DNA from: Alteromonadaceae bacterium
GTDB lineage: Bacteria > Pseudomonadota > Gammaproteobacteria > Enterobacterales > Alteromonadaceae
Assembly: GCA_013216005.1 (NCBI GenBank)
Contig: JABSOJ010000012.1
Coordinates: 4,247 to 68,246, forward strand
DNA: 64,000 bases
Direction of reading: 5' to 3'
Both the position numbers and the translations under genes were made by a program. Each line of letters opens with the position of its first letter. Within the stretch, counting starts at the first letter, position 1. The notes under the pieces were generated by a model, which had not been told where the DNA came from, searched no databases, and saw nothing but the letters and a program-made list of their open reading frames with translations. Of the stretch, positions 34,855 to 63,966 are shown piece by piece.

Positions 34855-37800
34855 TACGCATCCTCTCCATCATCGGCAGCCAAAAGACTGGCCACTTCTT
34901 CTTCACTCAATCCATCCAATTCAGCCAGTAATTCGGCAGTCATTTCGTCATCTTCTTCCTGCTTAAGTTGAACAATATTGTTAATTTCAACCACCAATGT
35001 TGCAATGGTTGGAGATTTGAATAGATCCTGCATGGTAAATTCTATGCCTAGGGTCTGTGCCTGAGCCACTACCTGCACACCACGAATTGAATCACCGCCC
35101 AATGAAAAAAAGTTGTCATTAATCCCAACTTTATCTACTTTGAGACAATCTTCAAATACCTTGCACAAAGTCGTTTCTATTTCATTGTTTGGTGCAACAT
35201 ATTCTTCTTCCTGACGATAATTATTAGCATTGTCTGCAATCAGTTTTTTGACATCGACTTTACCGTTGGTCGTCAATGGAAATTGGTCAACGTCGATAAA
35301 ACGGTCAGGGATCATATAATCAGGTAAATAATTTCCCAACACAGCACGAACTACTTCAATATCCTTGTCACCATGAGTTACCACGAAAGCCACCAGCGTA
35401 TTTTCATTAAAGTGATTAAGTTCTGTCGTCACTAGAACAGAATCAACACTCTCGTGAGCATTGATGGTACGCTCAATCTCATCAAGCTCAATACGGAAAC
35501 CATTGACCTTTACTTGTCGATCATTTCGACCAATAAATTCAAACTGCAATTGAGCACTATTGTTAAGCCGTACCAAATCACCTGTTTTATAAAGTAAACC
35601 GCCCTGCGTCGGATTAGCGGTATTTGCAACAAACCTTTCTTCGGTCAGATCATCACGACCAAAATAACCTTTCGCCAGACAGTCTCCACCGATAAACAAT
35701 TCACCAATCACTCCGGGAGGAAGTAGACACCCATCAAGATCAAGCACATACATCGCAGTGTTGGCGATAGGTAAACCAATTGAGGCATTACCCCTGTCTT
35801 TTGAAGTAATGAGTGCCACACAACAACCAACAGTCGCTTCGGTTGGACCATATTCGTTGTACACTCGTAAATCAGGCAAGAATTCAAAACACGTTTCTAG
35901 ATCTTTACAATTAAGAGATTCACCACCCAAGACCAACGTATCTATGCGAACCTGCTGGAACTGGTTGGTTTCAAACCAACTGTTCAGCATTTTCAAGTGT
36001 GATGGTGTCAATTTCAACAGGGTCGTTTTTTGATTGTCTACCAACGCCTGACGAAGGTTATCGATATTGTCATCATCAGCCAAACAAGCTTCGCCGCCCA
36101 CCAGTAACGGGAGATACAGCGAGGTGACGGTTAAATCGAAACCAATTGACGTATGAACAATACTATTACAGCCCGATGGAGTATCGTTCGGTAATCTACT
36201 TCGTGAAAAGAGATAGTTTTGACTTGCCCATTGCAGGTAATTTGCCAATCCCAAATGTTTAACCAAAACCCCTTTAGGCTTACCCGTTGAACCCGAGGTA
36301 TAAAGAATGTAAGCAATCGCTGACAAGTCAATTTTCCTGTTCAGGTTTTTATCATCAAATTCAGCCAGTTGTTCCTTAAGTTCCTGCGGGTACACTTGTA
36401 TATAATCCACAGCTTGTTGCGGCAAGTTCTGACTCAATTCGGTGTTGCAAACCACACCGGTAGTACCTGTCAGGATAAACTTCAAACGCTCACCACTCGT
36501 CGCAGGATCGATAGCACAATAAGCAGCACCAGTTTTCATCACTGCCAGTAAACAAACCACCAACTGATAAGAGCGCGGTAAATAAACGGCCATTACTTTA
36601 TCAGGCCCAATCTGCTGTTCAGCCAGATAATTAGCTAACTGGTTAGCATCAGTATTTAACGCTTGATAGCTGTACGTTTGCCCTTCAAATTTTATGGCTG
36701 TTGTATCAGGGCACTGTTGCACCTGTTGCTCAAACATTTGATGAAAGCATTCAGTCCCCCGATATCCTTCGACCTGGTTAACGGTTTCATATAACACAGC
36801 CCTATTTGCCTCAGATAACAAATTAACAACATTAATCGCCTTGTCACTTTTTCCCTGTTCAAGGCTGGTCAGCAACATATCCCCTAAATTCGATACTTCC
36901 GCAGCACTGAACAAGTTAGCATCATAATCAATGACCATAGATTGTGATGAACCGATTTTGGTACATATCAAGGTCAACCCTTCGTGATGAATAGGCACCT
37001 GTTGCTCTGTAACCGTAAAAGTAGCACCTTTTGCCTGTCGTGCCGCGGGATATTTTATAAACTCAAAGCCATAACGGTTATCTACCCGCAAGTCGGCAGG
37101 GGTAAAGGCCTGATATGTTTTTCCATCTTGATTTGCCTGAATAATTTGTTGGGTTAAAGCTGTAACAGGCATATTTTCAGATACCGTTAGCGGAAGTGGT
37201 ACTGTTTGTGAGTAAGCCCCGATACCGGTATCGAATTCATCACTCAAGCGACCGTCAAACAAACTATTGATGATAAACTGATCGTGAGGTTCGCAACGAT
37301 ATAAAACCAATGCCCAATAAGTCAATAACTGTTGTTCGTCATAACACCCCTGAGCCAGAGAAAAAGCATGACGACCACGGGACATATCGACACCTGTTGA
37401 CAATTCCTTGGGCTCCGTTACCTGCCATTTTTCGCCAAAATCTTGCCAGTATTCACTGCCACTGGGTTCTTCTTCGATGACCGCTTCCTGCCACTGAGCA
37501 TAATCAACGTATTGAACATCATCATGTTTACCTGAGCCATTAGCACCTGGTTCTTTAGAAACAGAGTCTGCCTCGTAATGATCGACAAACTGCATGAACA
37601 AATTGCTCAAACTGGTGTGATCAGCAAATATCGATGGAACCGATAAAAACAACTGATAATGATCCTGCTCGAATTTTACCACCAGAGCTGACACACGGGG
37701 CTGCTGTTGAAGTTTGATCAATGCAGATTCAATACTGTCTGTCTGATTGTCCGTCACCTCAATTTCTTGCCAGCCCAATTGCCGATCGCTTATCTGCTGC

Positions 37801-38015
37801 TGTGGATACTTAAGGGTGTCCACTTGTTCTATCACCGAGCACAAGGCTTCATGTCGATCAAGCACTTGCTCTAATGCGGTCTTTAACAAACTACTGTTTA
37901 AAGTGCCACTAACGGTTACCGACAATGTCGACCACAATGGTTGGCCAACAATCTTTTGATGCTTCCATACTTTACGTTGTTGAGAAGACAGTAAAAAACT
38001 CGGATTATCGTTCAT
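34854..38015 (-). CDS. Non-ribosomal peptide synthetase, single module with a non-catalytic C-like N-terminal domain (C*-A4-T), Asp/Asn-type
   Basis: The N-terminal ~415 aa are condensation-fold-like. The HHxxxDG position reads PSIFADH (37617..37637), so both His residues are absent. The A domain has ILYTSGSTGKPKG and FDLTVTS (36121..36149). Its by-eye code DLTKVGEVGK sits between Asp DLTKVGHIGK and Asn DATKVGEVGK. The T domain has FFSLGGDSIRG. The C-terminal helix is acidic (LLAELDGLSEEEVASLL). There is a 1-nt TAATG overlap with the downstream gene. Confidence 0.93.
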   Translation of the reverse strand: MNDNPSFLLSSQQRKVWKHQKIVGQPLWSTLSVTVSGTLNSSLLKTALEQVLDRHEALCSVIEQVDTLKYPQQQISDRQLGWQEIEVTDNQTDSIESALIKLQQQPRVSALVVKFEQDHYQLFLSVPSIFADHTSLSNLFMQFVDHYEADSVSKEPGANGSGKHDDVQYVDYAQWQEAVIEEEPSGSEYWQDFGEKWQVTEPKELSTGVDMSRGRHAFSLAQGCYDEQQLLTYWALVLYRCEPHDQFIINSLFDGRLSDEFDTGIGAYSQTVPLPLTVSENMPVTALTQQIIQANQDGKTYQAFTPADLRVDNRYGFEFIKYPAARQAKGATFTVTEQQVPIHHEGLTLICTKIGSSQSMVIDYDANLFSAAEVSNLGDMLLTSLEQGKSDKAINVVNLLSEANRAVLYETVNQVEGYRGTECFHQMFEQQVQQCPDTTAIKFEGQTYSYQALNTDANQLANYLAEQQIGPDKVMAVYLPRSYQLVVCLLAVMKTGAAYCAIDPATSGERLKFILTGTTGVVCNTELSQNLPQQAVDYIQVYPQELKEQLAEFDDKNLNRKIDLSAIAYILYTSGSTGKPKGVLVKHLGLANYLQWASQNYLFSRSRLPNDTPSGCNSIVHTSIGFDLTVTSLYLPLLVGGEACLADDDNIDNLRQALVDNQKTTLLKLTPSHLKMLNSWFETNQFQQVRIDTLVLGGESLNCKDLETCFEFLPDLRVYNEYGPTEATVGCCVALITSKDRGNASIGLPIANTAMYVLDLDGCLLPPGVIGELFIGGDCLAKGYFGRDDLTEERFVANTANPTQGGLLYKTGDLVRLNNSAQLQFEFIGRNDRQVKVNGFRIELDEIERTINAHESVDSVLVTTELNHFNENTLVAFVVTHGDKDIEVVRAVLGNYLPDYMIPDRFIDVDQFPLTTNGKVDVKKLIADNANNYRQEEEYVAPNNEIETTLCKVFEDCLKVDKVGINDNFFSLGGDSIRGVQVVAQAQTLGIEFTMQDLFKSPTIATLVVEINNIVQLKQEEDDEMTAELLAELDGLSEEEVASLLAADDGEDA

Positions 38016-38026
38016 TGTTATTCCCG

Positions 38027-41000
38027 TTATTTATCAAAATTGACAATATCGCCAATAGAAACCAACAGTTTTCGATCACCTTTATAAGCATTTCTGCCGT
38101 GGGCCATCAACAGATTATCGACCAATAACACATCACCTACCTGCCATACAAAACTGCTTTCAAGTTGTTCATAACAAGCCAGAATGCGTGACATCATTTC
38201 ATCGGCTATCTTTTCTCCGTTGCCGAAGTAGCAATTACGCGGATAATCCGCTTCCACATGCAGTTGTTTAATTGATTTTTTCGTCTCACTGTCAAGACAG
38301 GAGAAGTGCCAATGTTGTGACTGAGTTATCCAACACCATTGGTCACTATTGGGATCTTTCATTACCGCAGGCCTTTTGGCATAAGTAGTTAAACGGTTAT
38401 TGTCCTTCCACTCAAACGTCAGGTCGCTGTCTGCACAAGCCTGTTCAACCTTTTGCTTGTCATCCGTGCCAAAAATCGTTTTCCAACCAAGACCAAACAC
38501 ATCATCTTCCGCATAATTTCTGACATACATCACCCCAAGTTCGGTGAACTTTTCAACAATATCCTTATCCAGTGTCTGAAACATCAAACGCGAGTCAACT
38601 ATCGGTGTTTCTCCGCCTTCTGATGCAGCCACCTGACAATTGAACATGATGCGACTAGGCCAACTTTGGTTAAAAGTATTTTCGTTGTGCCACAACAACT
38701 GCTGATCTTTTGAATATTTAACAGGTGTTTGCACAATACCGTTGTCAGTCACCCCTTGATGTTCAGTGTTCTCCTGATATATTTCATTAAAAGTATGTTC
38801 AGTAAGGCGTTCAAATGCGTCCACCGAATCAATACTGAAACCACGGAACAAGCATGCCCCATGAGTTGTCAATAAAGGTTCCCAATGGGCTTTATTACTC
38901 GCCAGCCACTTGTCAAGTTCAACGGTATCGCCCGACGGACCAAATTGCACTGGACCGCTGGTTACCGCGGGCAAAACTGTTTTAACAACAGGTTGCTCTT
39001 TACTTTGCGTTCGGCGTTGGGAACCTCTTTTAAACGATCCCAGTTGTTTTTGCATCAATTTACCTTGTTCAGCCTCACGACGTCGCTGTTCATCAGCGCC
39101 AACACGTTCGGTTAGTTGAGCTAAAGTCATATTTGGATCAAGCAACATCAGGGTGAGCACTGCATCAAAGCGTTGTGACAACAGTTCGATAGTTTTAGCT
39201 TTGAACAAAGCACTGTTGTATACAAAATTACCTTTGACGACATTTTCATATTCAACCAGCCCCAAAGTCAGATCCAAACGTGAGGCAGCAGTTTCCAGCC
39301 CGGTAAACTCCATTTTCATGTTATTCAGTGAATAAGTTTCATCGGGAATACTTTCCAGAAAGAATTTAGTCTGGAATAAGGGGGTACTGTCATTGCGGCG
39401 CGGTACATTCAATTGGCTGACCAGTTGATCGAATGGTATTTCCTGATGTGAAAATGCGGCAATTGTGCGCTTACGAGTTGTAGCCAACATGTCGTTAACC
39501 GAAATACCCAAATCAATTGAAGTACGCAAAACAAGTTGATTGACGAAAAAGCCTATCAGATTTTCAATTTCCTGATGATCGCGATTCGCAACGTCTGTGC
39601 CTATAACCAGATCATGTTTGCCTGTACTCATATGCAAAGCAATATTGAAAGCTGATTGCAATGTCATAAACAAAGTAACACCTGATAACTGACCCAATTT
39701 GCGTAATTGAGTGGTCAAATCTGCCGAAATAGTAACGTCAATACTGGCACCCTTACCACCAATAGCTTCTTCGCGAGGGTGGTCTATCAGATAATCTGAG
39801 GTATCAGGAGCGTCAGCCAATTCACTTTGCCAGAATGACAAATGTTCTTCAAATACAGCTGTTTGTTGATTTTGCCAAATAGCGTAATCAATATACTGTA
39901 TTTGGGGTGTTTTCAACGGGCTTTCAGTGCCATTAGTGTAGCAATCATACAGAGTACTCATTTCTTCTATAATGATCCGCATGGACCAACCGTCAACGCA
40001 AATATGATGATAATTAAGGATCATAATCACTGCATCGTCTGCAATTATGGCAAACTCTGCTTGCCATATCGGTCCTGTAGTTAATTTGAACGAATGTTGC
40101 TCTTGTTCAACAACCAATGCTTTGAGGCGTGTTTGCTGGGATTGTTGATCTAATCCGGTCAAATCATGAACTTCATACTGTCTCTCAAAATGACGGTTAA
40201 CTATCTGCACAGCCTTACCATTAATATATTGGAACGAAGTTCGCAAAGATTCATGCCGATTCTCTATCTCGTTAAGCGCTTTGTTCAAATAATCAGTATT
40301 AATGTCTCCGGTCAGCTTAACGGTAGAAACATTGTTGTAAACGCTGGTCCCAGGGTTCATCTGATCAGCAAGCCATAAACGTTGCTGAGCAAAAGACAGT
40401 GCCGCATTATCAGTATTGGCTGCCTTGGGTATTGAAATTTGCTCATCACCATGGAATTGTTGTGTATTAATAAGCACTGCCATATCAGCCAAAGTTGCAT
40501 ACTCAAACAACAGCTGTAATTGGAAATGAACCTTGAAGTGTGTCTTGATACGACTATGCAGACTCACCAGATTAAGAGAGTGACCACCCAACTCGAAGAA
40601 GTTGTCATTTTTACCGATAGTGCCCACATTTAAAACAAGCAACCACAATTGCTGCAATTCACATTCAGTTTCAGTCTCAGGTGCAACAAATTGTACCGTG
40701 CTGCTACCACCTAATGTCAATAGGGCTAAAGCTTTACGGTCAAGTTTACCATTTGGCGTATAAAGCAATTTATCAATAAGTGATACCACACCAGGTACCA
40801 TGTAAACAGGCAATTTTTGCCTTAATGCCAGCATCAGTTGATCTATGTCTTGTTCAGCCTCAGCTTCATAATAGGCGACCAGTTGAGCCTCATCTCCTGT
40901 TGAGCTGATCACTGCTGCCGCAGCTTCAATACCGTCTATCGATAACAAGGCAGTTTCAATCTCACCTAACTCAATTCTGAAACCTCGAAGTTTAACTTGT

Positions 41001-44000
41001 GAATCAACCCGACCAAGACATTCAATTTCAATATGACCACGGTTACTGATCCAACGACCCATGTCGCCCGTGTTAAACACCAAACCGTTATCAGTTTGAA
41101 CAAAACTTTCAGCCGTTAATTCAGGTTTGTTGATGTAACCCTGTGTCACACCAGCGCCCCCGATATGAATCAAGCCCGGCACACCAATAGGGCATGGTTG
41201 CCCTGTACTGTTAAGGATTGCAACCTGAGTATTGGCTATTGGCGTACCTATACTTAAAGAGGCTGTATAATCAAGCTTTTTCACCGTAGACCAGATAGTG
41301 GTTTCGGTAGGACCATACATGTTCCAGACATCACTGCCGGTACGTTTGAATTGTTCTTTGAGGTTTAGCGACAGCGCTTCACCACCACACAAAATACGAA
41401 TGCCCTGTTCATTGTGCCAGTCCATCCTGAACAATGCCGACCAGGCACTTGGGGTCATTTGCATCACTGCAGGTTTAACCGATTCGATGGTTTCTTTGAG
41501 CACTTGCATGTCAGCCAATTGGGTCGCAGATGCAATAACACAAGTACCACCATTAATGAGCGGAAGAAATAACTCAAGTGCTGCAATGTCAAAACTGTAA
41601 GTTGTTACGGCTAACAGGGTGTCGCCAGAAGCAAAACCTGGGTTATCAGTCATCGACTGCATAAAGTTAACAACATTGGCATGGCTAACTTTAACCCCTT
41701 TGGGCTGACCAGTACTACCTGAAGTATAAATAGCGTAAGCCAAACCGTCAGCGCGGCTATGACAAACAGAAGCGTCAACAAACTTTGCTGTTTGTTCTAT
41801 GTAAACGATTTTGACATCACTGTTAAGTTGCCCATCCAGATTTGACGTTAAACTTGAACTGGTTACCAGCATTGGCATTGCACTGTCCTGAATAATATAC
41901 TGTATTCTGCAGACCGGATATTGTGGGTCCAGCGGAATATATGCCCCGCCTGCTTTCATGATACCCAATAATCCAACCAGCATTGACACACTACGGTCAA
42001 TGTAAATACCGACAAATTGACCGTTTTGCAAACCACCTTCGCGCAAATACGCCGCCAGTTGATGACTGCGTTGCTCCAACTCAACATAGGTAAGCTGTTC
42101 TTGCTCACAACTTACTGCCACTTGATCCGGCGTACGCTGAGCCTGAGCAGAAAAAAGCTGATCAAGGGTAACAGCTAAATCAACCTGAGCAAGATCTTGC
42201 TGGATATTGCCTTGCTGGATTTGAGCAATCATGGCCTGTTCAGTTTCAGTAGTAAAATTAATCGTTTGAACCGATTCGTTGAATTCGCCACTAAACAGTT
42301 CAACAATATTGAGCAGTTGTTCTCCCATAAAATCAATAGATTCACGACGATAAAGATCAGAACTGTATTCAATGTGAATATCAACACCGCCGTCAGGTGT
42401 ATTGACAAAATCAAAAGATAAATCGAATTTCGAGATCGAATACAAAGGATCTAGTATGTGTGCTTTACAGCCGGCCAATTCAAGATTGGTATCCAAATCA
42501 ATATAATTAACAAGTACTTGAAATAACGGATTACGACTTTGATCACGTTCAGGATTAACCGCTTCTACCAATTTTTCAAACGGCAGGTTTTGATGATCCT
42601 GAGCACTGATCATGGTGTTATGTACCATATCGAACAATTCAGATTTGCTTGCGGTAGCACTCTGGTCAGCCAGCTTCAATACCACTGTATTGACAAAGAA
42701 ACCAACCGTTTGCTCAATCAGATGATTATCACGATTAGCTACCGGAATACCAAGGCAGAAATTTGATTGGTCAGCATAATGTTGTAATAGAGTATGTACC
42801 GACGCAATAAAGATCGTGAACACTGTCACTTTATTTTGTTCACATATCTTCTTCAGACGGTTTATTTGTTCAGGATTTATGGGGAATAACACCCGTTCTC
42901 CCCTGCCACTAAGCCTTTTAGGACGTGGCATGTCGGTCGGCATTTCCAGATTATCGAACCCACCTAATTGATTGCGCCAAAACTGAACTTCTTTGTCCAG
43001 ATACTTATCATCCATATAACGGCGCTGCCAAATGGCGTAATCGGGATACTGAATCGCTGGTAAAGTCATCATTGCGTCTTTGCCTTCACGATACAAAACA
43101 TAGCTCCCGGAAATATCCTGCAGCAAAATATTAATTGACCACCCGTCAGAAATAATGTGGTGCATACATACACCTAAAACATGACTGTCTTCACCAAATT
43201 TAAGTAATATCACACGCATCAATGGCGCACTGGCAAGATTAAAAGGTCTGTGGATCCAATTTTCAACAACCGGTCTGAACGTGTCAACATTAGCGATATT
43301 ACAACCGGCACTAACATCCACTTTTTCAATATAGATATGATCAACATCACTGACGATTTGCTCTGCACCATCGCCATTTTTAACAAATTGGGTTCGCAAT
43401 GATTCGTGACGTTTAATCACAAAGTTTAACGACTGTTGCAAGGCCTGCTCATTCAACGGCCCTTCAATACGAACTAAACCCGGCATGTGGTATTTATCGC
43501 TCTCACCTAACGCGGCAAGGAACCATATTCTTTCCTGGCCATAAGACAATGGGATCTGCTGTTCACGCGACTGTGCTGCTAACTGCGGCAACAAATTATT
43601 ACTTTGTTGCTGGCGATCTTCAATCATCGTAGCCAAATTAGCCAAATCCTCCGAATCGTATATTTCACGAATCGACATGGCCACTTCAAAGGTTTCCTTG
43701 ATATGGGAGATCATTTTCATGGCAATCAGCGAATGACCGCCCAGACCAAAGAAATTATCATGACGCCCAATTTTGTCCACTGCAAAAAGATTAAACCAAA
43801 GTTCAGCTAAACGAGTTTCTATTTCCCCCTCAGGCGCTACATAAGTATTTTTTTCTACCGTATTATAATGTTCAATATTATGACTTAGATATTTTCGGTC
43901 CACTTTGCCGCTTGGGGTTAATGGAAATTCATCAATCTTGATCAATTCTGAGGGGTGCATATATTCAGGTAATTTATCCGTCAACTGCTGTTGCAATTGT

Positions 44001-46744
44001 TCAACAACATCCTGATCTGCGCTGACAGTATAAAAACCGACCAGTGATTTATTCTCACTCTCGCTGTCTTTAACAATAACGACGGCTTCGACTACGTCAC
44101 CATGATGATTCAATACCTGCTCAACTTCACCCAGTTCAACACGATAACCGCGAATTTTCAATTGTGAATCACTGCGACCAATAAAGTGGATATCACCATT
44201 TTCGTCGAAATACGCCATATCGCCAGTACGGTAAATTCTTGCATTAATGCCATCATTGAATGGATCAGGCAAAAACTTAGCTTTAGTATCTTCATCACGA
44301 TTATGATAACCAGAAGCCAGACTGTCACCACCAAGACACAATTCTCCAACACAGCCTACCGGAACTGGTTGTAGCTTACTGTCCAGAATATAAGACTGAC
44401 GGTTGACCATTGACTTGCCAATAGGAATATCCTGCACTGAAACAGGCAGTGGAGTTTGAACATAGTGCATAGTCGCAGTAACTACCGCTTCTGTCGGACC
44501 ATAGGCATTGATAAGACTAACGTGTTCAAGACCTATTTGATGCCAGTCGTCTACCAGTTCTTTTAACATCCGATCACCACCACTGATAGTCAAACGTAAT
44601 TGGTCGACTTTACCCAATGGTGAATTTTCTGTCCATTCTTTAACCACCAGATTCCAATATGCGGTCGGGAAATTGATCACGGTCAGTTTCAGTTCATCAA
44701 TCTTGTCAGCTATTTCCAACGGGCTCCAGACATCTTCATCACGGATCACCACGGTGGCACCATTACACAGAGGCACGTAGATTTGTTCAATAGAGGGATC
44801 AAAGTTAGCAGGGGCAAACAAAAGTACCCTATCATCAGGCGTTGAGTTATATCTGAGACTGATACCCTTGATATGATTAATCAATGAAGATTGTGGGATC
44901 AAGGTGCCCTTAGGAAGCCCTGTTGAACCGGAAGTATAAATTAAATAAGCCGTAGACGATGTATCGACCTGACAGTCAAGGTTTGTTACCTCTGATGCGT
45001 TATTATCCGGTTGAACCATAGGTATTACTTGCACACTGTCATCGTTGATTGTCGGTAACAATTCAGGCAAGCAAAGTACGATTTTTGATGCCGAATCCTT
45101 TAACATGTAATCAATACGATCTTGAGGGTAAGAAGGGTCAAGAGGCACATAAACACCTCCAGCTTTGGAGATTGCTAACATGGCGGCAATCAAGCCAAAT
45201 GAACGTTGCGCAAAGACTGCCACGAAAATTTCCGTGCCACAGCCTTTTTCTGTTAATTGGTGAGCTAAGGCATTTGACCAACAATTCAAATCTTTATAAC
45301 TGATCGCCTTGCCTTTAAATTCCAACGCATTTTTATCCTGATTCCCAGCCACATGCGCTTCAAACATTTGGTGGATAGCCTGATGCTTAGTTTCATACTC
45401 AATTGTCTGCGGATTGAAGTCATTGAGAATTCTACTCCTTTGTTTTTCCGGTAATAGCTGCAGATCATTAATTTCAGAATTTGGCGTTTCAAGTGCACTG
45501 CTCATAAGTTGTTGATATTGCTGCTGTACGGCTGCAACCGTTTCAGCGGACAATGTATCGCTGTTAAATTTAAACGCTAAATGAATAGCATCGTTATCTC
45601 CATCAAACAAACAATCGAGTTTAAGAGCAAAACAATCCAGTTCGACAAAGCAGGCAGCAACTGAAAAATCAATACTCGCAACAGATTGACGGCTAAAACC
45701 ACTTTGCGCAGCAAAGCTATAATTAAAAAACTCGCCTTCAGGCTGCAATCTGCTCCAATGTTGTGGCCAGCTGAAACATTCCAGCCAGTCAGCACCATTG
45801 ATCTTTTTACGGGCATTCTGTTTAACCAGCTCAATGAAGCTTACATCCTCTTCAAAATTTCCGTCAATGGGTAAATAACGGTTAATCACTCCAAGGGTTT
45901 CCATTAATTGCTCGTCGTTACGTCCGTCAAAAGCCATGCCTATGACAGGTTTGGTGTTACCTGATAAACGCGAAATCAACACCAGCCAAAGACTGAATAA
46001 TACGTCATCTACATTTACCTTATGCAGATTTGCAAAGGCACTCAATTGGGTTACTTCAATAGCAGATAATTCAGTGGTCATCGTTTTAATAGATGAAGTA
46101 TCAAACGTAGTTGACAACGAAATTTGTCCAGACAATTTAACCTTGATGTCGCCTGCGGCACAACGGTGTTTCCAGTAGTTGATACCTTCAATAGCATCTT
46201 CAGATTCAATCAGTTCGGTAACCCAGGCAGAAACATCAATGTATTGAAGCGGCTCCTCAATATCACAGCCCTTGCCACTGCTAACCAGTTCGCTGTATTC
46301 CATACACAACTCGTCGTTCAAACGTTTCAATCCCATGTTATCGGCAAACAACGGGTGCATAGTCAAAACCAAGGTAGAAATGTTACCCTGCTGTTCAAAC
46401 AATATTGCTGATATCAAATTGTCATGACTTCGTTCTTTTGCATCATCTCTTAACTGTTGAAGTACTTCATTGAGCACAGCACCTGAAAATTCACCGTCAT
46501 AAATCTTTTGCTGCCAAACTAATTCAGACTCATAAACTGCCTGAACTGGCAAAATCATACCAGGCAGAGTGTCAAAGCGCGTACGCAATATCTCGTGACG
46601 TTCGATGATATTAATCAACGCTTTTTGCAATAACTCAGTATCCGGTGATCCTTCCAGTCTAATCGCCAATTGGGCTGCACTGGATAAAGCTCCCTGTGAA
46701 AAGAAGTGTTTTTGATATGGGGATAATAGGAACCCGTTTGACAT
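38027..46744 (-). CDS. Non-ribosomal peptide synthetase with C-terminal Fe(II)/2OG oxygenase domain (C*-A2-T-C-A3-T-C-TauD/CAS-like)
   Basis: In the N-terminal C-like domain the motif reads HPLFADN (inside 46334..46360), so the catalytic second His is replaced by Pro. A2 has LIYTSGSTGLPKG, code DPENIGAVTK (unassigned). Then T GGHSLIAM and C HHIISDGWS. A3 has code DILQLGMIWK (Gly). Then T GGHSLNL and C HHICVDGWS. A basic linker follows, then a TauD/clavaminate-synthase-like domain (LFRGF, WHNENT, GETP, DNLLMAHGRNAY). I place the start at ATG 46744 because AGGTGA lies 7 nt upstream. The ORF track's longer form starts at TTG 46780. Confidence 0.94.
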   Translation of the reverse strand: MSNGFLLSPYQKHFFSQGALSSAAQLAIRLEGSPDTELLQKALINIIERHEILRTRFDTLPGMILPVQAVYESELVWQQKIYDGEFSGAVLNEVLQQLRDDAKERSHDNLISAILFEQQGNISTLVLTMHPLFADNMGLKRLNDELCMEYSELVSSGKGCDIEEPLQYIDVSAWVTELIESEDAIEGINYWKHRCAAGDIKVKLSGQISLSTTFDTSSIKTMTTELSAIEVTQLSAFANLHKVNVDDVLFSLWLVLISRLSGNTKPVIGMAFDGRNDEQLMETLGVINRYLPIDGNFEEDVSFIELVKQNARKKINGADWLECFSWPQHWSRLQPEGEFFNYSFAAQSGFSRQSVASIDFSVAACFVELDCFALKLDCLFDGDNDAIHLAFKFNSDTLSAETVAAVQQQYQQLMSSALETPNSEINDLQLLPEKQRSRILNDFNPQTIEYETKHQAIHQMFEAHVAGNQDKNALEFKGKAISYKDLNCWSNALAHQLTEKGCGTEIFVAVFAQRSFGLIAAMLAISKAGGVYVPLDPSYPQDRIDYMLKDSASKIVLCLPELLPTINDDSVQVIPMVQPDNNASEVTNLDCQVDTSSTAYLIYTSGSTGLPKGTLIPQSSLINHIKGISLRYNSTPDDRVLLFAPANFDPSIEQIYVPLCNGATVVIRDEDVWSPLEIADKIDELKLTVINFPTAYWNLVVKEWTENSPLGKVDQLRLTISGGDRMLKELVDDWHQIGLEHVSLINAYGPTEAVVTATMHYVQTPLPVSVQDIPIGKSMVNRQSYILDSKLQPVPVGCVGELCLGGDSLASGYHNRDEDTKAKFLPDPFNDGINARIYRTGDMAYFDENGDIHFIGRSDSQLKIRGYRVELGEVEQVLNHHGDVVEAVVIVKDSESENKSLVGFYTVSADQDVVEQLQQQLTDKLPEYMHPSELIKIDEFPLTPSGKVDRKYLSHNIEHYNTVEKNTYVAPEGEIETRLAELWFNLFAVDKIGRHDNFFGLGGHSLIAMKMISHIKETFEVAMSIREIYDSEDLANLATMIEDRQQQSNNLLPQLAAQSREQQIPLSYGQERIWFLAALGESDKYHMPGLVRIEGPLNEQALQQSLNFVIKRHESLRTQFVKNGDGAEQIVSDVDHIYIEKVDVSAGCNIANVDTFRPVVENWIHRPFNLASAPLMRVILLKFGEDSHVLGVCMHHIISDGWSINILLQDISGSYVLYREGKDAMMTLPAIQYPDYAIWQRRYMDDKYLDKEVQFWRNQLGGFDNLEMPTDMPRPKRLSGRGERVLFPINPEQINRLKKICEQNKVTVFTIFIASVHTLLQHYADQSNFCLGIPVANRDNHLIEQTVGFFVNTVVLKLADQSATASKSELFDMVHNTMISAQDHQNLPFEKLVEAVNPERDQSRNPLFQVLVNYIDLDTNLELAGCKAHILDPLYSISKFDLSFDFVNTPDGGVDIHIEYSSDLYRRESIDFMGEQLLNIVELFSGEFNESVQTINFTTETEQAMIAQIQQGNIQQDLAQVDLAVTLDQLFSAQAQRTPDQVAVSCEQEQLTYVELEQRSHQLAAYLREGGLQNGQFVGIYIDRSVSMLVGLLGIMKAGGAYIPLDPQYPVCRIQYIIQDSAMPMLVTSSSLTSNLDGQLNSDVKIVYIEQTAKFVDASVCHSRADGLAYAIYTSGSTGQPKGVKVSHANVVNFMQSMTDNPGFASGDTLLAVTTYSFDIAALELFLPLINGGTCVIASATQLADMQVLKETIESVKPAVMQMTPSAWSALFRMDWHNEQGIRILCGGEALSLNLKEQFKRTGSDVWNMYGPTETTIWSTVKKLDYTASLSIGTPIANTQVAILNSTGQPCPIGVPGLIHIGGAGVTQGYINKPELTAESFVQTDNGLVFNTGDMGRWISNRGHIEIECLGRVDSQVKLRGFRIELGEIETALLSIDGIEAAAAVISSTGDEAQLVAYYEAEAEQDIDQLMLALRQKLPVYMVPGVVSLIDKLLYTPNGKLDRKALALLTLGGSSTVQFVAPETETECELQQLWLLVLNVGTIGKNDNFFELGGHSLNLVSLHSRIKTHFKVHFQLQLLFEYATLADMAVLINTQQFHGDEQISIPKAANTDNAALSFAQQRLWLADQMNPGTSVYNNVSTVKLTGDINTDYLNKALNEIENRHESLRTSFQYINGKAVQIVNRHFERQYEVHDLTGLDQQSQQTRLKALVVEQEQHSFKLTTGPIWQAEFAIIADDAVIMILNYHHICVDGWSMRIIIEEMSTLYDCYTNGTESPLKTPQIQYIDYAIWQNQQTAVFEEHLSFWQSELADAPDTSDYLIDHPREEAIGGKGASIDVTISADLTTQLRKLGQLSGVTLFMTLQSAFNIALHMSTGKHDLVIGTDVANRDHQEIENLIGFFVNQLVLRTSIDLGISVNDMLATTRKRTIAAFSHQEIPFDQLVSQLNVPRRNDSTPLFQTKFFLESIPDETYSLNNMKMEFTGLETAASRLDLTLGLVEYENVVKGNFVYNSALFKAKTIELLSQRFDAVLTLMLLDPNMTLAQLTERVGADEQRRREAEQGKLMQKQLGSFKRGSQRRTQSKEQPVVKTVLPAVTSGPVQFGPSGDTVELDKWLASNKAHWEPLLTTHGACLFRGFSIDSVDAFERLTEHTFNEIYQENTEHQGVTDNGIVQTPVKYSKDQQLLWHNENTFNQSWPSRIMFNCQVAASEGGETPIVDSRLMFQTLDKDIVEKFTELGVMYVRNYAEDDVFGLGWKTIFGTDDKQKVEQACADSDLTFEWKDNNRLTTYAKRPAVMKDPNSDQWCWITQSQHWHFSCLDSETKKSIKQLHVEADYPRNCYFGNGEKIADEMMSRILACYEQLESSFVWQVGDVLLVDNLLMAHGRNAYKGDRKLLVSIGDIVNFDK
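38030..38935 (-). other. Fe(II)/2OG oxygenase domain fused directly behind a C domain (approximate bounds)
   Basis: It begins near GPSGDTVELDKWLASNKAHW (38881..38940) and ends at the stop codon 38027..38029. The HxE ... HGR motifs are present. Confidence 0.85.
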
Positions 46745-46780
46745 AATATAGTCACCTGCAAATAAACGTTTAAAAAACAA

Positions 46781-47833
46781 TTAAAATTGTGGACGATCCC
46801 AGGCATCAGCCATGGCAACCCGCACTTTTCTCGGACCAGTGAAAGCCTGTCTGCCATGAACTGATAACACGTTGTCAATCAACATCAGATCGCCCTTCTG
46901 CCAAGTAAACATCTCTTTTTCAGCTAGGTAGGCATCACGCAAGTGGTTAGCAATATCATCCGGTATGCGAGTACCGTCCCCATAGTAAGTATCAAACGGC
47001 AAACCTTCTTCACCCACTTCATTAAGCATGCCTTCCAGTACGTGCTTGGGTAAATTAGCCTGATGCCAGAACGCTATGTGGTTAAACCAGCATTCCTCAT
47101 TGGTTTCTGGATGGAACACAGTAGATGAACGTTTTTGAGTGGTAAACAAACCACCATCTTTTTTCCACTTGAAATCAATCTGGTTTTTTTGACAATAGGC
47201 TTCAACCTCTTTCTCGTTGCGACCTGCAAAAGCATCCTTCCAGTCATAAGCGAGATACTTGCCATAGTTACGGTTAAGACTCCAACCTAACTTGCGAAAT
47301 TTGTCCAGTACATCGGGATCGATTTGATTCATGATCCTTTTACTACAACCTACCGGTGTTTCGCCATCGGTGATAGCCTCGGCTTCACAGAAAAACCACA
47401 CCTTCAGGGCAAAAGTGATTGAAGCGGTATTTTCATTGTGCAGAGCAATGGTTTCATCGTCAGGATATAAGGTTGAGGTAAATACATTACTGGCAATCGT
47501 TTTACGTGGTGAAGAACGTTCAACATATTCAATCAGGCTATAACTAGAATCTTTTACATAATCAATAAATTCAGCATCGCCATAAAGGTCAAAACCGCGA
47601 AACAAAATTACCCCTTTATTAAGCAATTCTTTGTCAATATATTCTTGATTGTGGCGTGTCCACTCTTTGAGGCTGATACCTTCTGCTTTTGGTTGAATCA
47701 ACAAACCAAAATAATCATTACCGAACAGTTCGCTGCTCTCAACCAAATCAGCGCTGGATACTGAAGAGGCGCTACGGGCCCCTCTACGTCGTTTAATCGA
47801 GGGTTTGCTGCTACCAGTGTTTCTGTTTAACAT
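46781..47833 (-). CDS. Stand-alone Fe(II)/2-oxoglutarate-dependent oxygenase, TauD/SyrP/CAS-like (putative amino-acyl beta-hydroxylase)
   Basis: A 350-aa ORF with LFRGF, the LHNENT (HxE) facial-triad motif, GETP, and the distal DNVLSVHGRQAF His/Arg. It is homologous to the domain fused at 38030..38935. AAGGAA lies about 7 nt upstream of the ATG. It sits between an NRPS ending in a C domain and an NRPS starting with a C-like domain. Confidence 0.9.
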   Translation of the reverse strand: MLNRNTGSSKPSIKRRRGARSASSVSSADLVESSELFGNDYFGLLIQPKAEGISLKEWTRHNQEYIDKELLNKGVILFRGFDLYGDAEFIDYVKDSSYSLIEYVERSSPRKTIASNVFTSTLYPDDETIALHNENTASITFALKVWFFCEAEAITDGETPVGCSKRIMNQIDPDVLDKFRKLGWSLNRNYGKYLAYDWKDAFAGRNEKEVEAYCQKNQIDFKWKKDGGLFTTQKRSSTVFHPETNEECWFNHIAFWHQANLPKHVLEGMLNEVGEEGLPFDTYYGDGTRIPDDIANHLRDAYLAEKEMFTWQKGDLMLIDNVLSVHGRQAFTGPRKVRVAMADAWDRPQF

Positions 47834-47859
47834 AGCTAATTCCTTAAAAGGTAAATAGG

Positions 47860-50800
47860 TTAATTAGGGTTTTGGGTAGTGCTTCTTTTACGGATAATTC
47901 TGGGTTTCTTTTTCGCCGAACGTAACTTTCGCTTACGCTCGTGCAACAAATCAAAAAGGTCTGCGAGTAATTTGTCAGGATGGTCACAGATAAATTCAGC
48001 GACAAAATGAATATCACCAAGCAAGTAATTGATATCGCTTTGACTAAACCGCTCTGTGTCATAGCAGGCATACATCTGGATCACATCACGGGGGATCACT
48101 ATTAAGGTCAACGCCATCGGGCTTTCACCATGATGGTTAATATCTTCCAGTGCTAATACGCCACTTTCTGTAGTGTAGCTTTCTTCCACCGGATAGTTAT
48201 TAATGTTCAGCAACACATCAAACAAGTTACCAGCGTTGGTGTCGACCAATTTGTTAATTTCGCCCAAAGGCAAAAAGACATGATCTGATTTATCCTGATT
48301 GACGGTTTTAATAGCATTGATCAAGGTCAGCATATCCTGCTGCATATTTAAACGGGTTCGTGACGGAACCGTGCGAATAAACAACCCGGGCACATTGTCA
48401 ATATTATCAATTTCACCCGGTCTGCCTGAAAAGGTTTCACCATAAATAACATCAAGTTGGTCGCTATAATGCGCAAGAACAATAGAATAAACACAATGAA
48501 TCACATGACTCAACGTTAGCTGGTGCTGCGCCGTAAAACGGGTTATTTTGACAGACTCTGCTTCTGAGAAATCAAGCGAATAATTATGTTTGAAGTTACC
48601 TCCGTCCCCTTCTATACTTTCTTTTTTATCAATATTGAGAACTGTTACGGTATTAAATCCAGACAAGTATTCGCGCCAATATTGACGGCTTCGATCAGCA
48701 TCAGCGGTTTTATCATTCAACCAGCTTAAATATTCTCTGTAATTAGCTGTCGGCTTCATCAGTGGTTCTTTGCCGTCGCTCAATGCTTTATAAGTTGCCA
48801 GCAAATCCCGTAAAACAATCGCCATAGACCAGCCATCAATAATGCCGTGATGAAAATTCCACACAAACTGCGTCAATTGATCCTGCATAAAATACAAATG
48901 CAACTGCATCAACGGCACTTCACTCAAAGTAAAACCTTGTTCTCTTTGATTTTTAAGCTGTTTATCACGTTCAAGTGTGGCTTGATCCAACGAAAAATCC
49001 CGTAAGTCATGTATTTGCCACGGCAGGATCACATCTTTAAAAATAACAAACTTGGGTGAATCTAACCCTTGCCCGGCAAAACCGGCCCGCAGTATAAAAT
49101 GATGACGAATAATACGCTGCCATGCTTGTTGCCATAGTTTAGGATCAAAACTTCCTTTGAGATCGCAAGTAATTTGTTCGAAATACAAGGTATTAGTATC
49201 GGCATACATTCCGTGAAAGAATATTTCTTCCTGAGTACTGGTAACGTTGAAAATATCAATGATCCTGTGTGGTGATTTTTTGGAAAAATCAGCAACAAAT
49301 GCAGTAAGTTTTTCTTGTTCTACAGTGATCAACGGAAAGTCTGATGGTGTATATTCAAAGTGATCACATTGACTACACAACAAAATAAGGTCACGTAAAT
49401 GGTTAAGATATTGTAAAAGAAGCCCTTGCATTGTCTCTTTATTATAACTGAGGGTGTCATATCCCCATTCAACATGCAGTTGCCCCGAACGTATCATGGT
49501 ATTGATTTCAAACGCGTGTGTCCGTTTATCTGAACCACTTCGACTGCCTTTTGGCACAGCTTCCATCTGCTGGTAAATAGTGCCTTCATCAAAAGACTGA
49601 TCCAATTGGCCAAGATAATTAAACAACACTTGTGCCCCCTTGGCAGATTTTAGTGTTTGCGCCTGCTTAGACTGACTCAAGTACCGCAACACACCATAAT
49701 TGAAACCTTTGCCCGGCACAAATTTACGTTTTTCTTTAATATTTTTAAGGGTATTACCCAAGTTACCATCAGGATCTGCTGACAACGCCAAGGGGTAAAT
49801 AGCGGTGAACCAACCGAGCGTATGGGATAAATCAATATCTTCAAACACAGCTTCACGACCATGACCTTCAACATCGATTAGTAACTCGTTGCGACCGTTA
49901 AATTCAAACAATGTTAATACCAATGCGGCTAATAACATGTCATTGATGTCAGTATTGAACATTTGTGAGCTGTCTTTAAGTAAACTTGTCGTTTCGTCGC
50001 TACTTAAAGATACTGTGAGCACTTCACTATTCATTTCCAAGAGGTCAGTGCCTTCACTCCCCTGACCTATAGGCAAACAACCATAATCCTTATTGTGAAC
50101 TGCTTGCCAGTACGGCAATTCTTCCTGTACGATGTCGCTGTCTGCGTAAGACGATAATTTGTCGGACCATTGCATAAATGACGATGTTTTAGCTGATAAC
50201 ACGACAGTTTCACCGTTTAATAGCTCCTGATAAGCAGTGTTTAAATCATCAAGGAAAATCCGCCATGAAATACCGTCGGTGATCAAATGATGCATACTCA
50301 AAAACAGTTTTTTCGATTGAGATTCTGACCACTCAAAACATGCGCTCCCTACCAACGGTCCTTTTGCCAAGTCAAAGCTTCCATGCAAACGGGTCATAAT
50401 ATCGTTGATAAACGCCTGCTGCTCGGTCGCAGGTTTATCACCCATTTGATAATGTTCCAATTTTGGTGTTTCAAACAAGCCTGAAAATACCTGTTGTCCG
50501 TCAATAAAACGAGTTTTAAAAATATGATGATAATTAACAACAACTTCAAACGCCTGTTGCAATACATTGGCTTGCACGTCAGCCGCAATACGGAGCATCA
50601 CTGACTGATCCCAGTGGTGAGGCTGGCTGAAATCTTTTTCAAAGAACCAACGCTGTACAGGAGTCAGGGCAAATGCATTATCGAATTCATCCTGTTCGGT
50701 AATCTGACTGGTCACATGTCCGACATTGGCGGCCAACTGTGAAATGGTCGGATATTTGAACACATCGCTGGTCGAAAATTTCACCCCTTGCTTTTTCAGG

Positions 50801-53800
50801 CGTTCAGTCATTTGAATGGCCAAAATAGAGTCGCCACCCAAAGCAAAGAAATTATCGTTAATTCCAATCAAATCATTTTCAATCAACAGCAATGAAGACC
50901 ACACGGCACTTATCGCCTTTTCAGTCAGGTTGTGCGCTTGTTCATACTCACAGGCTAAATCTTCTCGGCTGAACTGAGGCGCTGGCAAGGCTTTTTTGTC
51001 CAGTTTGCCGTTTACCGTCAACGGCATCGCATCAAGCGTCATAAAATGGGTTGGGATCATGTATTCAGGCAGTGATCGGGCAACAAAATTTCGCAATTGC
51101 TCAACCGACACTTTTTTGCCAATAACTTTTTCGACGATAACATAAGCAACTAATTGTTTTTGTTCATTGTCATTTTGATGACACAAAACCACCGCATCAC
51201 GAATATCCTCATGATCCAACAATACCGCTTCAATTTCTTCTAGCTCAATTCTGAAACCACGGATCTTGACTTGATTATCCATTCGGTCATGATAATTAAC
51301 TTGCCCGTCAAAGCGTAATGAAACCATATCACCAGATTTATACAGCCTCTGTGTTAATTCACCATCAAATGTATGTTCAAAAAAACGTTCTTCGGTTAAT
51401 TCCGGATGATTCAAATAACCTCTGGCCAAGCCTGCACCACCTAACATCATTTCGCCATGAACACCCATAGGTTGTAACTGCATTTGGCTATTGCAAACAT
51501 AAATAGCCATGTCATCCAACGGCAAGCCAATCACACTGCTGTCAGTATTAGTATCCTCTTCATTTATTTGATAAAAAGTCGTATATACGGTGGTTTCTGT
51601 CGGACCATACATGTTGAGCAATTCGGTATGGTCGGTCATACCTGCTTCAAACCATGGTTTGATCTTTCTACAATCAAGTTTTTCACCGGCTAACACAACA
51701 TATCGTAAATGCGAGTGCAGTGCAGCGAAGTTGCATAATGAAATAAAGGGATAAAATGCTGAAGGAGTTTGTGCCATTACGGTGACTTGCTGTTGTTGTA
51801 CTAAGTTAACAAAAGCTTCGCTGTCTTTCGCTGTGTCACCCGATACCACCACAAGTTTACCTCCATGAAACAGAGGACCCCACATTTCAAAAACCGACAC
51901 ATCAAAAGCATAAGAATGAAACAGAGTCCAGACATCCTCTGAGCGAAACTGATAATGACCTTTAACTGCTTCAAATAAACGAATAACATTATGATGTTCA
52001 ACCATAACCCCTTTGGGTTTGCCGGTTGAACCTGAGGTATAAATCACATAAGCCAAAGAAAATGGTGTGATACCACTGTCGTTTGCTTCAATATTTGATG
52101 AACTGTTAGTCGCCAACAACTTCTGACTTTGGGCATCATCAAGTACAATAGTGTCAACACCTTTAACATCTGCCGTCAATGAACATAAATCAGCATGGGT
52201 AAGGATCAATACAGCACCAGCATCTTTAATAACATGCTCAATCCGTTCCTTAGGATGCCCAGAATCCAGAGGGATATACGCGGCTCCGGCTTTTAACACC
52301 GCCAGTATAGCCACCAAAGTGTCCGTCGAACGATGCAAGCACAATGCTACTCTTGATTCTGTTTTGATCCCTTGGTTCATCAGTTGACAAGCCAAACGAT
52401 TGGCTTGTTCATTGAGTTGTTGATAAGTTAATTGCTTACCGTCAGGCACCATCACTGCCACATTATCAGGATAAGCAACCACTTGCGCCTCGAATTTAGA
52501 GACAATAGTCAAACCTTCACCATCATGGTTTGTACGACAAGCCAACTTCGCCATGATCTGTTGCTGCTCACCTTTAGGTATCATTGGATACAGGTCGAGT
52601 GGGGTATCACTTTGTTTCGCTACTCCCGACACAATATAAGTAAAATGGCGCAGCATTTGATTAGCATTATCGCTAGTAAATAAACTGGTGTTGTAAATCC
52701 AGGTCAAATCAACTTTGTCAGCCGATTCTGTCACTTCCAAAGTAACATCAAATTGAGAGGTGGTTTGTGGTAAGCCAAGTGATTTCGCCGCTACCGATCG
52801 ACCTAGTACAATCGCATCATCACTATCGTTGAGCAATGCACCCATAGACTTGTTGTCCGCCAGCCCCGCATTTTGATAAACAAATGCAACCTGAAACACC
52901 GGTGAATAACTGGCATGACGAGATGTCTGAGTAGCGACCAGATCAAACGGATAATTCTGGTGAGCCAGCGCCGCCAGTGAGGTGTTTTTGACTTGTTGAA
53001 TCAACTCGGCAAAACTCGCTTCTGAATCAAAGAAAGTACGCAACGCTACCGTATTAACAAAATAACCAACCAAGGGTGACAACTCACTGCTCGGTCTGCC
53101 CAATGTTGGTGTTCCTACAATAATATCGTTCTGACCACTGTAACGGTAAAGCAATAAATTAAAACAACCCAACAACAGTTGATTTAAGGTCACTCCATGT
53201 TGCTGTGCCGTGGTCTTTAACTCGGCAAGCATGTTAGCCCCGAGTGTGACCGAAGTAACATCTCCGGTATAAGTTTGACTTTGCGGTCTGGGAAAGTCAG
53301 CTGGTAACGTTAACAACGGCAACTCACCGGCTAACTGTTGAGACCAATAAGTTTGTGATGCTACCCACGCGTCTTGCGCTAGCTGCTCCCCTTGCCAATA
53401 AGCAAAATCTGCATAAGACAAACTCAACGGGACTAACCCGTCAAACCCCTTGCCATCGTAAATATCGCCAAATTCATTAAGCAGGCACACCAGTGAATGA
53501 AAATCTATGGTGATATGATGGAAGGTCATCACAACAAAATAATCACCGTCTCTGATCACCAGTTCTATTCGAAACACAGGGCCATTGGTCAAATTAAACG
53601 GCACCGCAGATTTTTTAGCCAACAATGCACGCACACCTTCGTCATCAACCCCGTCAGCTTGCGATTGACTGAAAAACGATCCTGCCTCCGCATTGATGTG
53701 TTGCATCACAGTACCATCCACCAACCGATAACTGGTGCGTAATACACTATGGCGTTGTGCCAACATCTGCCACGCTTCTTCAAAACGACTAATATCCAAC

Positions 53801-60216: not shown

Positions 60217-60235
60217 TGTAAGGGACCTAAACAAC

Positions 60236-61930: not shown

Positions 61931-61949
61931 CAAACGAGGGGTTTAAATT

Positions 61950-63197: not shown

Positions 63198-63219
63198 TTA
63201 AAGACACAGACTAATTAAT

Positions 63220-63966
63220 ATGAACAAATGGTTTATCATCCCAAAACCAAATAGAAACGCCGAATTAAGATTATTCTGTTTTCCCTATGCGGGCGGTAGT
63301 TCTACAACTTATTTACCTTGGGTAAATGATTTACCTGATAATGTAGAACTCATTATTGTTCAACCGCCAGGACGAAATAACAGAATGTTTGAACCAATGC
63401 ATTCGAATATGACTGACTTAGTTAACGAATTAATACCTATTATTCCAAGACTACTAAATAAACCTTATATTTTTTTCGGTCATAGTTTAGGCAGTAGAAT
63501 AGCATTCGAACTATTGACTCAGTTACAAATGCTTAACCATCCACTACCACAGCATTTTATTGCCTCAGGTAGCAGGGGAGCACAAGTTCCATCTACCAAA
63601 AAACCAACTCATCATCTACCCCATGATGAATTTATTGCCGAACTTCAAGATTTGAATGGCACACCGCAAGCTGTTTTAGAAAATCAAGAATTGACGGAAT
63701 TATTTCTTCCTTTACTCAGAGCTGATTTCAAAATATCCGAAACATACTGTTATTCAGGAAAAATGATTTTGGACTGTAAAATATCTGTATTAAGTGGGGA
63801 AGATGATATTGACATTACTTTAGCTAACCTACAAAGCTGGGGGGATTTATTTACCGAAGAGGTCGAAATACATTATTTGTCTGGAGGTCACTTTTTTATA
63901 GAAAGTCATCGCGAAAATGTTCTAGAAATAGTAAATAGTATTATTGCTAAATATTGGAGAGCATAA
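63220..63966 (+). CDS. Type II (editing) thioesterase
   Basis: The 248-aa product has the LRLFCFPYAGGS N-terminus, the GHSLGS nucleophile elbow and a C-terminal GGHFF. All three are hallmarks of GrsT/PvdG-type TEII. Confidence 0.9.
   Translation: MNKWFIIPKPNRNAELRLFCFPYAGGSSTTYLPWVNDLPDNVELIIVQPPGRNNRMFEPMHSNMTDLVNELIPIIPRLLNKPYIFFGHSLGSRIAFELLTQLQMLNHPLPQHFIASGSRGAQVPSTKKPTHHLPHDEFIAELQDLNGTPQAVLENQELTELFLPLLRADFKISETYCYSGKMILDCKISVLSGEDDIDITLANLQSWGDLFTEEVEIHYLSGGHFFIESHRENVLEIVNSIIAKYWRA

Follow-up and report, generated by a model that had tools for sequence, protein, structure and literature searches.

What does it mean when two modules of one assembly line are each interrupted, between the condensation (C) and adenylation (A) domains, by an Fe(II)/2-oxoglutarate oxygenase and a C-like domain that has lost its catalytic residues? 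The question is raised by a stretch of 64,000 nucleotides from an Alteromonadaceae bacterium (assembly GCA_013216005.1, contig JABSOJ010000012.1, positions 4,247 to 68,246), hereafter called the window. All coordinates refer to this whole stretch, and features lie on the minus strand unless stated otherwise. Pfam scans, motif searches and internal phmmer comparisons outline a single 12-module lipopeptide line of nonribosomal peptide synthetase (NRPS) and polyketide synthase (PKS) type. The arrangement occurs twice in it: copy 1 has the oxygenase as a protein of its own, Ox1, encoded between synthetases N1 and N2, and copy 2 has it as a TauD domain fused to the end of N2 and followed by synthetase N3.

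We interpret the two copies, with a probability of roughly 80%, as two instances of a known system for β-hydroxylating a carrier-bound amino acid, set in an uncharacterized 12-module line of a metagenomic relative of Pseudoalteromonas. At the center of that system stands the interface domain, a non-catalytic member of the C superfamily that Reitz et al. are said to have proposed in 2019 as the element positioning the hydroxylase and the carrier-bound residue. The two C-like domains of the window, designated C*, would be its counterparts.

Domain organization of the two modules

Copy 1 is distributed over three genes. N1 ends in a C domain with an intact HHGIIDGWS motif (residue 2390), which is DCL-like, follows an epimerization (E) domain and sits among post-E C domains in a neighbor-joining (NJ) tree; it presumably forms the bond to residue 2. 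The iron ligands of Ox1, encoded next, are H132, E134 and H326. N2 then opens with a C* domain that covers positions 9-455 of the PF00668 profile, full length with a weak score, and has MHPLFADN instead of HHxxxDG, the catalytic second His being replaced by Pro. The gene caller sets the N2 start 12 residues further in, at about position 46744. Behind C* lie A2 and its thiolation (T) domain, the module predicted to be served by Ox1; the specificity code of A2 is DPENIGAVTK. Past its last C domain, N1 carries a strongly basic tail (RKRKLRSAKKKPRIIRKRSTTQNPN), which may be a docking element for Ox1 or N2.

In copy 2 the oxygenase is joined to the synthetase. The third C domain of N2 retains HHICVDGWS (residue 2258), is LCL-like and probably forms the bond to residue 4. 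Between it and the C-terminal TauD domain lies a linker of about 55 residues. The next subunit, N3, begins with the second C* domain, which covers profile positions 6-455 of 456, again full length with a weak score; its motif reads VPSIFADH, and both His residues are gone. The A4-T4 module of N3, the predicted client of the fused N2 oxygenase, has the Asn-type code DLTKVGEVGK with Glu at position 322.

The C domain of N4 (residues 91-529), which follows this putative β-OH-Asn module, has PHSISDG instead of HHxxxDG and an N-terminal LQMGMLHHMDLGNDGD stretch. It lies outside the LCL clade, beside DCL-like C domains, though N3 lacks an E domain. The N3 T domain is of the GGDSI form, as are two T domains of the line that precede E domains. 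This N4 domain may be a dual E/C domain giving D-configured hydroxy-Asn. D-β-OH-Asn has been reported in flavipulchrin, where it is unexplained; flavipulchrin itself (P. flavipulchra) was considered as a candidate product and rejected, as it comes from a different, heptapeptide cluster.

The domain matches of N1, Ox1, N2 and N3 are at E-value level and do not reflect chance likeness. The layout agrees with the original prediction, made from the DNA letters and translated reading frames, in its order of domains (C, oxygenase, dead C-like domain and A-T, once split and once fused), its coordinates and the motifs it quoted. Both upstream C domains are complete, as it had proposed, with high PF00668 scores (Table 1). 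It had also placed both protein breaks inside a module, and this is where they fall; the remaining three protein junctions of the line are of the usual kind, lying between T and C, E and C, and T and C.

Interface-like C domains

Both C* domains are homologous to C domains over their full length and have lost the catalytic HHxxxDG. Each stands directly before an A domain, with an intact C domain ahead of it and a TauD-type hydroxylase as its neighbor. The same placement is found in the cyanochelin B cluster of Leptolyngbya sp. NIES-3755 (plasmid 2, AP017310.1), whose domains were analyzed here, and at 80 of 80 surveyed TauD domains with downstream sequence.

Similarity scores separate these domains from catalytic ones. 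The N2 C* domain has a median BLAST score of 138 bits against post-TauD domains versus 60 bits against catalytic upstream C domains, and the N3 C* domain 99 versus 44 bits; the intact C domains of the window show the opposite preference. Among 62 C-superfamily domains placed in an NJ tree, the 26 that are interface-like, including both window C* domains, their P. piscicida orthologues and CcsI and CcsL of cyanochelin B, form one clade beside the LCL domains in 30 of 40 bootstraps. This clade is apart from every catalytic C subtype, with the cyanochelin and post-TauD domains serving as proxies for the 2019 set. Judged by motif, score and tree, the C* domains are interface-like and predicted to be catalytically dead (motifs HPLFADN and PSIFADH), which is also how the original prediction had read them. 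NCBIfam has no specific model for either C* domain or for either oxygenase.

Occurrence in other genomes

For the survey, one genome per species was scanned with the clade of the fused TauD domain, yielding 80 loci (L013-L092) that were annotated with hidden Markov models built for this analysis and that contain 83 TauD domains. The loci belong to Pseudoalteromonas, Rheinheimera, Dyella, many Acidobacteriota, Nostocales and Chloroflexota. The upstream C domain shares an open reading frame (ORF) with TauD in 43 of 83 cases, and TauD lies directly after a C domain in 29 more; these fusion counts come from the genome survey, a protein homologue search with the fused TauD having listed few long proteins. 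Downstream of TauD, a C-like domain is present in all 80 cases with available sequence. It is followed by an A domain in 73 of the 80, which are all those whose sequence ran far enough. The upstream C domains have the HH...D signature in 69 of 72 cases, and 74 of 80 downstream C-like domains are without both His residues and have the consensus P[AS]LCAD, the Cys of which is missing from the Pseudoalteromonas copies.

In none of the 80 surveyed cases do TauD and the following C-like domain share an ORF. The break within the module is thus the rule, and what varies is only how the oxygenase is connected to the C domain upstream. A new polypeptide starts at the interface-like domain in every case, as in both copies of the window, so the contact between oxygenase and interface domain is probably also a subunit junction. 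This regularity favors treating it as such when assembly lines are annotated or engineered.

Ox1 in its exact form is confined to metagenome contigs (SRR7648341 and related samples). Among isolates, Pseudoalteromonas piscicida comes closest, with a syntenic cluster of identical domain order beside astB. Ox1 is the most conserved part, with 73% identity between the window and P. piscicida, followed by the fused TauD domain with 52-55%. Identity is 33-56% for the remaining NRPS domains (FAAL, A, T, E and catalytic C). The two C* domains are the fastest-diverging, at 28% and 25%, yet they are full-length. The cluster copies of the P. piscicida strains (L008, CP031759.1; L009, CP021646.1) have frame breaks, which interrupt N1 and the fused TauD in one strain and the first C* domain in the other. 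Sequencing errors or decay of the cluster could account for them.

Such rapid divergence, together with the low PF00668 scores of the two C* domains (Table 1), would be expected if they were functionless recombination leftovers at module boundaries and the oxygenases found the carrier-bound residue unaided, a behavior that has been proposed for stand-alone hydroxylases directed at T domains. Leftovers are unlikely, however, because the C* domains are kept so consistently. They match nearly the whole Pfam profile, and a C-like domain follows TauD without exception across Proteobacteria, Acidobacteriota, Cyanobacteria and Chloroflexota. Moreover, most domains of the C* type share a conserved motif of their own, and the 26 in the tree group in one clade. 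An interface domain retained for its function accounts better for this record.

Oxygenases and predicted substrates

In Ox1 and the fused N2 TauD domain, the HxE...H iron ligands are preserved, as are the conserved Arg residues. Identity is 28% between these oxygenases and about 19-21% between the two C* domains; the copies thus represent two different lineages of one system and not a recent duplication. Recent tandem duplication was rejected as their origin on the basis of these low identities and of the different clades to which the oxygenases belong. In an NJ tree of TauD domains, the two fall on opposite sides of the deepest split.

On one side, Ox1 is found in a group (group A, 99/100 bootstraps) with CcsK of cyanochelin B and with enzymes partnered by Gln-type (DAWQFGLIDK) or Glu-type (DAKDLGVVDK) A codes. 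Within group A it belongs to a core clade with proteins from P. piscicida, Cellvibrio, L103 (assembly GCA_041156785) and L105 (100/100), in which the partner A codes are all DPEN[IV]GA[IV]TK or DPESSGSITK. On the other side, the N2 TauD domain lies in a clade paired with Asn-type A codes (100/100), where fused and separate forms are interleaved. The TauD domain of CcsFGH is outside this Asn-coded clade, on the same side of the tree, and is the nearest reference to N2 TauD with 35% identity. In the Asn-coded clade, 65 of 73 partner A codes are DLTK[VI]GEVG or DATK[VI]GEVG, which differ at position 322 from the code of CcsI and CcsL (DLTKIGHVGK), modules tied to Asp by experiment.

Glu at position 322 is, by established specificity codes, an indicator of Asn, and residue 4 of the product is probably Asn. 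The code DPENIGAVTK presumably resembles Arg- and Orn-type codes such as DAEDIGAITK and DMENLGLINK, a weak assignment, and we take it to be unlike His codes; residue 2 is possibly cationic.

Loci of the Ox1 clade repeat the order of intact C domain, TauD and dead C-A-T in P. piscicida, Cellvibrio mixtus, metagenome contigs L011 and L012, and L103. Both L012 and L103 contain a split and a fused copy in one cluster, and a metagenome scan with the Ox1 clade found 8 loci, all distant. The trio of Ox1, interface domain and DPEN[IV]GA[IV]TK code is conserved in Pseudoalteromonas, Cellvibrio and metagenomes. In L011, L012 and L096, Ox1 relatives stand before interface-like domains whose A domains have Gln-type (DAWQFGLIDK/EK), Glu-type (DAKDLGVVDK, fused TauD) and DAKNMGLANK codes, and in L012 interface-like domains also precede Asp-type A domains. 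This suggests that a single cluster can apply the device to several of its residues. A match on an Eleftheria terrae plasmid was considered as clovibactin and set aside, since its cluster is siderophore-like.

The oxygenases belong with aminoacyl-carrier hydroxylases, as had been predicted, and the UniRef label of one homologue is SyrP-like. A PDB sequence search with the oxygenases returned just two uncharacterized TauD-like proteins. Free-amino-acid hydroxylases exist in the same superfamily, and the two enzymes could in principle act on the free amino acid before activation, as reported for AsnO and VioC, with the A domain loading the hydroxylated monomer and C* being unrelated. The unusual A2 code could suit such a pre-modified substrate, but the A4 code is of an ordinary Asn type and one of the oxygenases is covalently part of the synthetase. 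The SyrP-like label also argues for action on the carrier, as do literature reports of on-carrier hydroxylation for cupriachelin and hypeptin. Because tight linkage to a partner domain specific to carrier modules would be hard to explain for an enzyme of free substrates, we regard hydroxylation before activation as very unlikely and retain the interface-domain system as the explanation.

A 2022 review describes TauD domains in only a few siderophore synthetases and always beside an Asp-selective A domain (PMC8949500). The predicted Asn, Glx and DPENIGAVTK partners widen this commonly stated scope, not the mechanism. It is tempting, though still tentative, to extend the interface mechanism beyond Asp and His siderophores and to see in it a general β-hydroxylation device for diverse carrier-bound residues, which here would be Asn and a residue outside Asp, Asn, His and Glx, maybe cationic. 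If this were true, the DPEN-code residue would be a building block with no earlier link to this class of enzymes. Substrate scope matters for predicting the structures made by many orphan lipopeptide clusters, the 12-residue product of this line among them. It is here, and above all in the conserved pairing of Ox1 with DPENIGAVTK, that the residual interest of the locus lies.

Proposed mechanism

Under the interface-domain reading, the A domain would load an amino acid onto the T domain of the same protein. The N-terminal, dead C-like domain of that protein would dock the Fe(II)/2-oxoglutarate oxygenase, leading to β-hydroxylation of the tethered residue, and the intact C domain that closes the preceding protein would then form the peptide bond in trans. 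The copies would differ in how the oxygenase is delivered, as the separate protein Ox1 in copy 1 and tethered to the upstream C domain in copy 2. The order of domains, the catalytic residues lost from C* but retained in the oxygenases and in the upstream C domains, and the constant position of the C* clade behind TauD are direct observations. Docking, the timing of hydroxylation on the carrier, β-regiochemistry and the substrates we infer from the family literature and the strict genomic linkage.

Several points weigh against this reading. The tie of the C* domains to the named interface family runs through the cyanochelin proteins, position and motif, and their clade has moderate bootstrap support (75%) in a tree built by simple NJ. 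A PDB sequence search with C* returned ordinary C domains only and no solved structure of such a domain, so its docking role is still a proposal. The A2 and A4 codes are neither Asp- nor His-type, the substrates for which the system was defined. Finally, Ox1 is a stand-alone enzyme beside an interface-like domain, a pairing that the siderophore scheme of Reitz et al. reportedly gives to His hydroxylases only.

Assembly line and neighboring genes

Every large gene from position 202 to 57413 is on the minus strand, and the features of the line are collected in Table 1. Between NRPS modules 6 and 7, N4 contains a KS-AT-KR(-ACP) polyketide module, which implies a hybrid lipopeptide product containing a reduced C2 unit. 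Nothing in the window marks the product of the line as a siderophore. The cluster is directly preceded upstream by astB (succinylarginine dihydrolase), as it is in P. piscicida. Beyond astB, the plus strand encodes a PvdQ-like penicillin amidase, an ABC exporter, an HlyD-family protein and a type II thioesterase. In Microbulbifer (L104), an Ox1 homologue is accompanied by a similar set of amidase, ABC and thioesterase genes.

Table 1. Features of the assembly line and its surroundings (window coordinates; residue numbers refer to the encoded protein)
Feature	Coordinates	Strand	Residues	Description
N1	47860-56019	-		FAAL-ACP-C(starter)-A-T-E-C
N1 C-terminal C domain	47863..49257	-	2255-2719	PF00668, 252 bits
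N1 basic tail	47863-47940	-		past last C domain
Ox1	46781..47833	-	350 aa	stand-alone TauD-family protein, Fe(II)/2-oxoglutarate oxygenase; PF02668 TauD, E 2.5e-29
N2	38027-46780	-	2917 aa	C*-A-T-C-A-T-C-TauD
C* of N2	45371..46780	-	1-470	predicted interface-like, dead C; PF00668, 123 bits
A2-T2 of N2	43631..45364	-	A 473-959; T 990-1050	T motif LGGHSL
Third C domain of N2	39113..40417	-	2122-2556	PF00668, 315 bits
TauD domain of N2	38048..38947	-	2612-2911	PF02668, E 7e-36
N3	34854-38015	-	1053 aa	C*-A-T
C* of N3	36741..38015	-	1-425	predicted interface-like, dead C; PF00668, 85 bits
A4-T4 of N3	34974..36734	-	A 428-919; T 949-1014	T motif LGGDSI
T domain of N3	34974-35171	-		GGDSI form
N4		-		C-A-T-E-C-A-T-KS-AT-KR-ACP-C-A-T-E
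C domain of N4	33268-34584	-	91-529	PHSISDG; may be dual E/C
Polyketide module of N4	22492-27000	-		KS-AT-KR(-ACP)
N5		-		C-A-T
N6		-		(C-A-T)x4-TE
astB	56082-57413	-		succinylarginine dihydrolase
Amidase to thioesterase genes	57736-63966	+		penicillin amidase, ABC exporter, HlyD-family protein, type II thioesterase

Comparison with known systems

The scheme attributed to Reitz et al. reportedly distinguishes the types IβH(Asp), IβH(His) and TβH(Asp) and was drawn up for the Asp and His residues of siderophores. Ox1 departs from the TβH-Asp type, as its partner module opens with a C* domain and the code DPENIGAVTK is not Asp-type. Its architecture, a stand-alone enzyme with an interface-like domain, matches that of the IβH-His type, a comparison made by architecture; its wider clade is partnered by Gln-, Glu- and Asp-type codes. 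The N2 TauD domain has the NRPS-fused layout of the IβH-Asp type, being a C-terminal TauD with iron ligands followed by a subunit (N3) that opens with C*, but its partner A4 is not Asp-selecting. Passages on the 2019 system describe fused and stand-alone hydroxylase types coexisting in clusters, as they do here. The partner A domains set the window apart, with their Asn-type and DPENIGAVTK codes in place of the Asp and His that the scheme is said to cover.

The original prediction had given the nomenclature as T-fused hydroxylases on one side and stand-alone enzymes with an interface domain on the other. This is inverted and its direction is corrected here: in passages of the citing papers, stand-alone enzymes are named TβH(Asp) (PMC10391617; PMC11574851) and contrasted with NRPS-fused ones. 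A passage of the cyanochelin B paper likewise opposes "NRPS-fused" to "self-standing" hydroxylases, the fused ones standing before the hydroxylated module (PMC12628792).

A more distant parallel is the X domain of glycopeptide synthetases (PMC8949500), which is also a degenerate C-type domain that has lost catalysis and that recruits oxygenases onto a carrier-bound peptide. Unlike C*, the X domain recruits cytochromes P450, is located at the C-terminal end of the last module instead of at a subunit N-terminus, and represents a separate lineage, so that the likeness is one of analogy, not of membership.

Potashchelin (PtcA, PtcB, PtcC) comes much closer. Its line contains FAAL-ACP-C-TauD, with the TauD "fused with the C-domain", followed by a protein with the order C-A(Asp)-PCP, and a stand-alone hydroxylase is encoded in the same cluster (PMC7100376). 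Potashchelin and the cupriachelin and taiwachelin lines cited with it (PMC7100376), all compared by description only, differ from the window in being Asp-specific siderophore lines. In the cyanochelin C preprint, a "C-domain and TauD" share a single ORF that works together with the following one, and a "β-OH-Asp-specific interface domain" serves as a marker for mining; antiSMASH 8 has profiles for the hydroxylases and for interface domains.

The closest counterpart is cyanochelin B. CcsFGH (2933 residues) has the same domain order as N2, C-A-T-C-A-T-C-TauD, and a passage of the paper states that CcsI is "preceded by an NRPS-fused β-hydroxylase (CcsFGH)" (PMC12628792). CcsI (1048 residues), with the order C*-A-T, can be aligned to N3 over the whole length (32% identity), and its LPALCAD motif falls opposite VPSIFAD. 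The split layout is present as well: CcsJ ends in an intact C domain (HHLILD), CcsK is a stand-alone TauD protein of 354 residues, and CcsL opens with a dead C-like domain (LPSLCAD) followed by A-T-E. Cyanochelin B thus combines one fused and one stand-alone oxygenase from two deep lineages, with Ox1 grouping with CcsK and N2 TauD falling on the CcsFGH side, and split and fused copies already coexist in a pathway with a solved product. The differences concern the partner A domains, which carry an Asp code in cyanochelin B and Asn-type and DPENIGAVTK codes in the window, and the first C domain of CcsFGH, which keeps HHIVAD where the first C-type domain of N2 is dead. In addition, the window oxygenases are 31-38% identical to the Ccs enzymes, and the cyanochelin B product is a siderophore.

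The original prediction took the combination of a C-fused oxygenase with an adjoining interface-like domain, occurring once split and once fused, for an NRPS architecture that had not been described before. This is hardly tenable: although the confinement of TauD to Asp-selective siderophore modules in the 2022 review (PMC8949500) leaves the layout under-described in the general literature, it has been published for potashchelin (PMC7100376) and described for cyanochelins B and C, it is borne out by our domain analysis of cyanochelin B, the C-oxygenase fusion is common (43 of 83 TauD domains) and part of characterized pathways, and L103 and L012 hold split and fused copies in one cluster. The architecture itself changes nothing that was known, and a current antiSMASH run would flag it. 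The window follows the published standard layout and adds a new example of it in an uncharacterized lipopeptide cluster from a Pseudoalteromonas relative.

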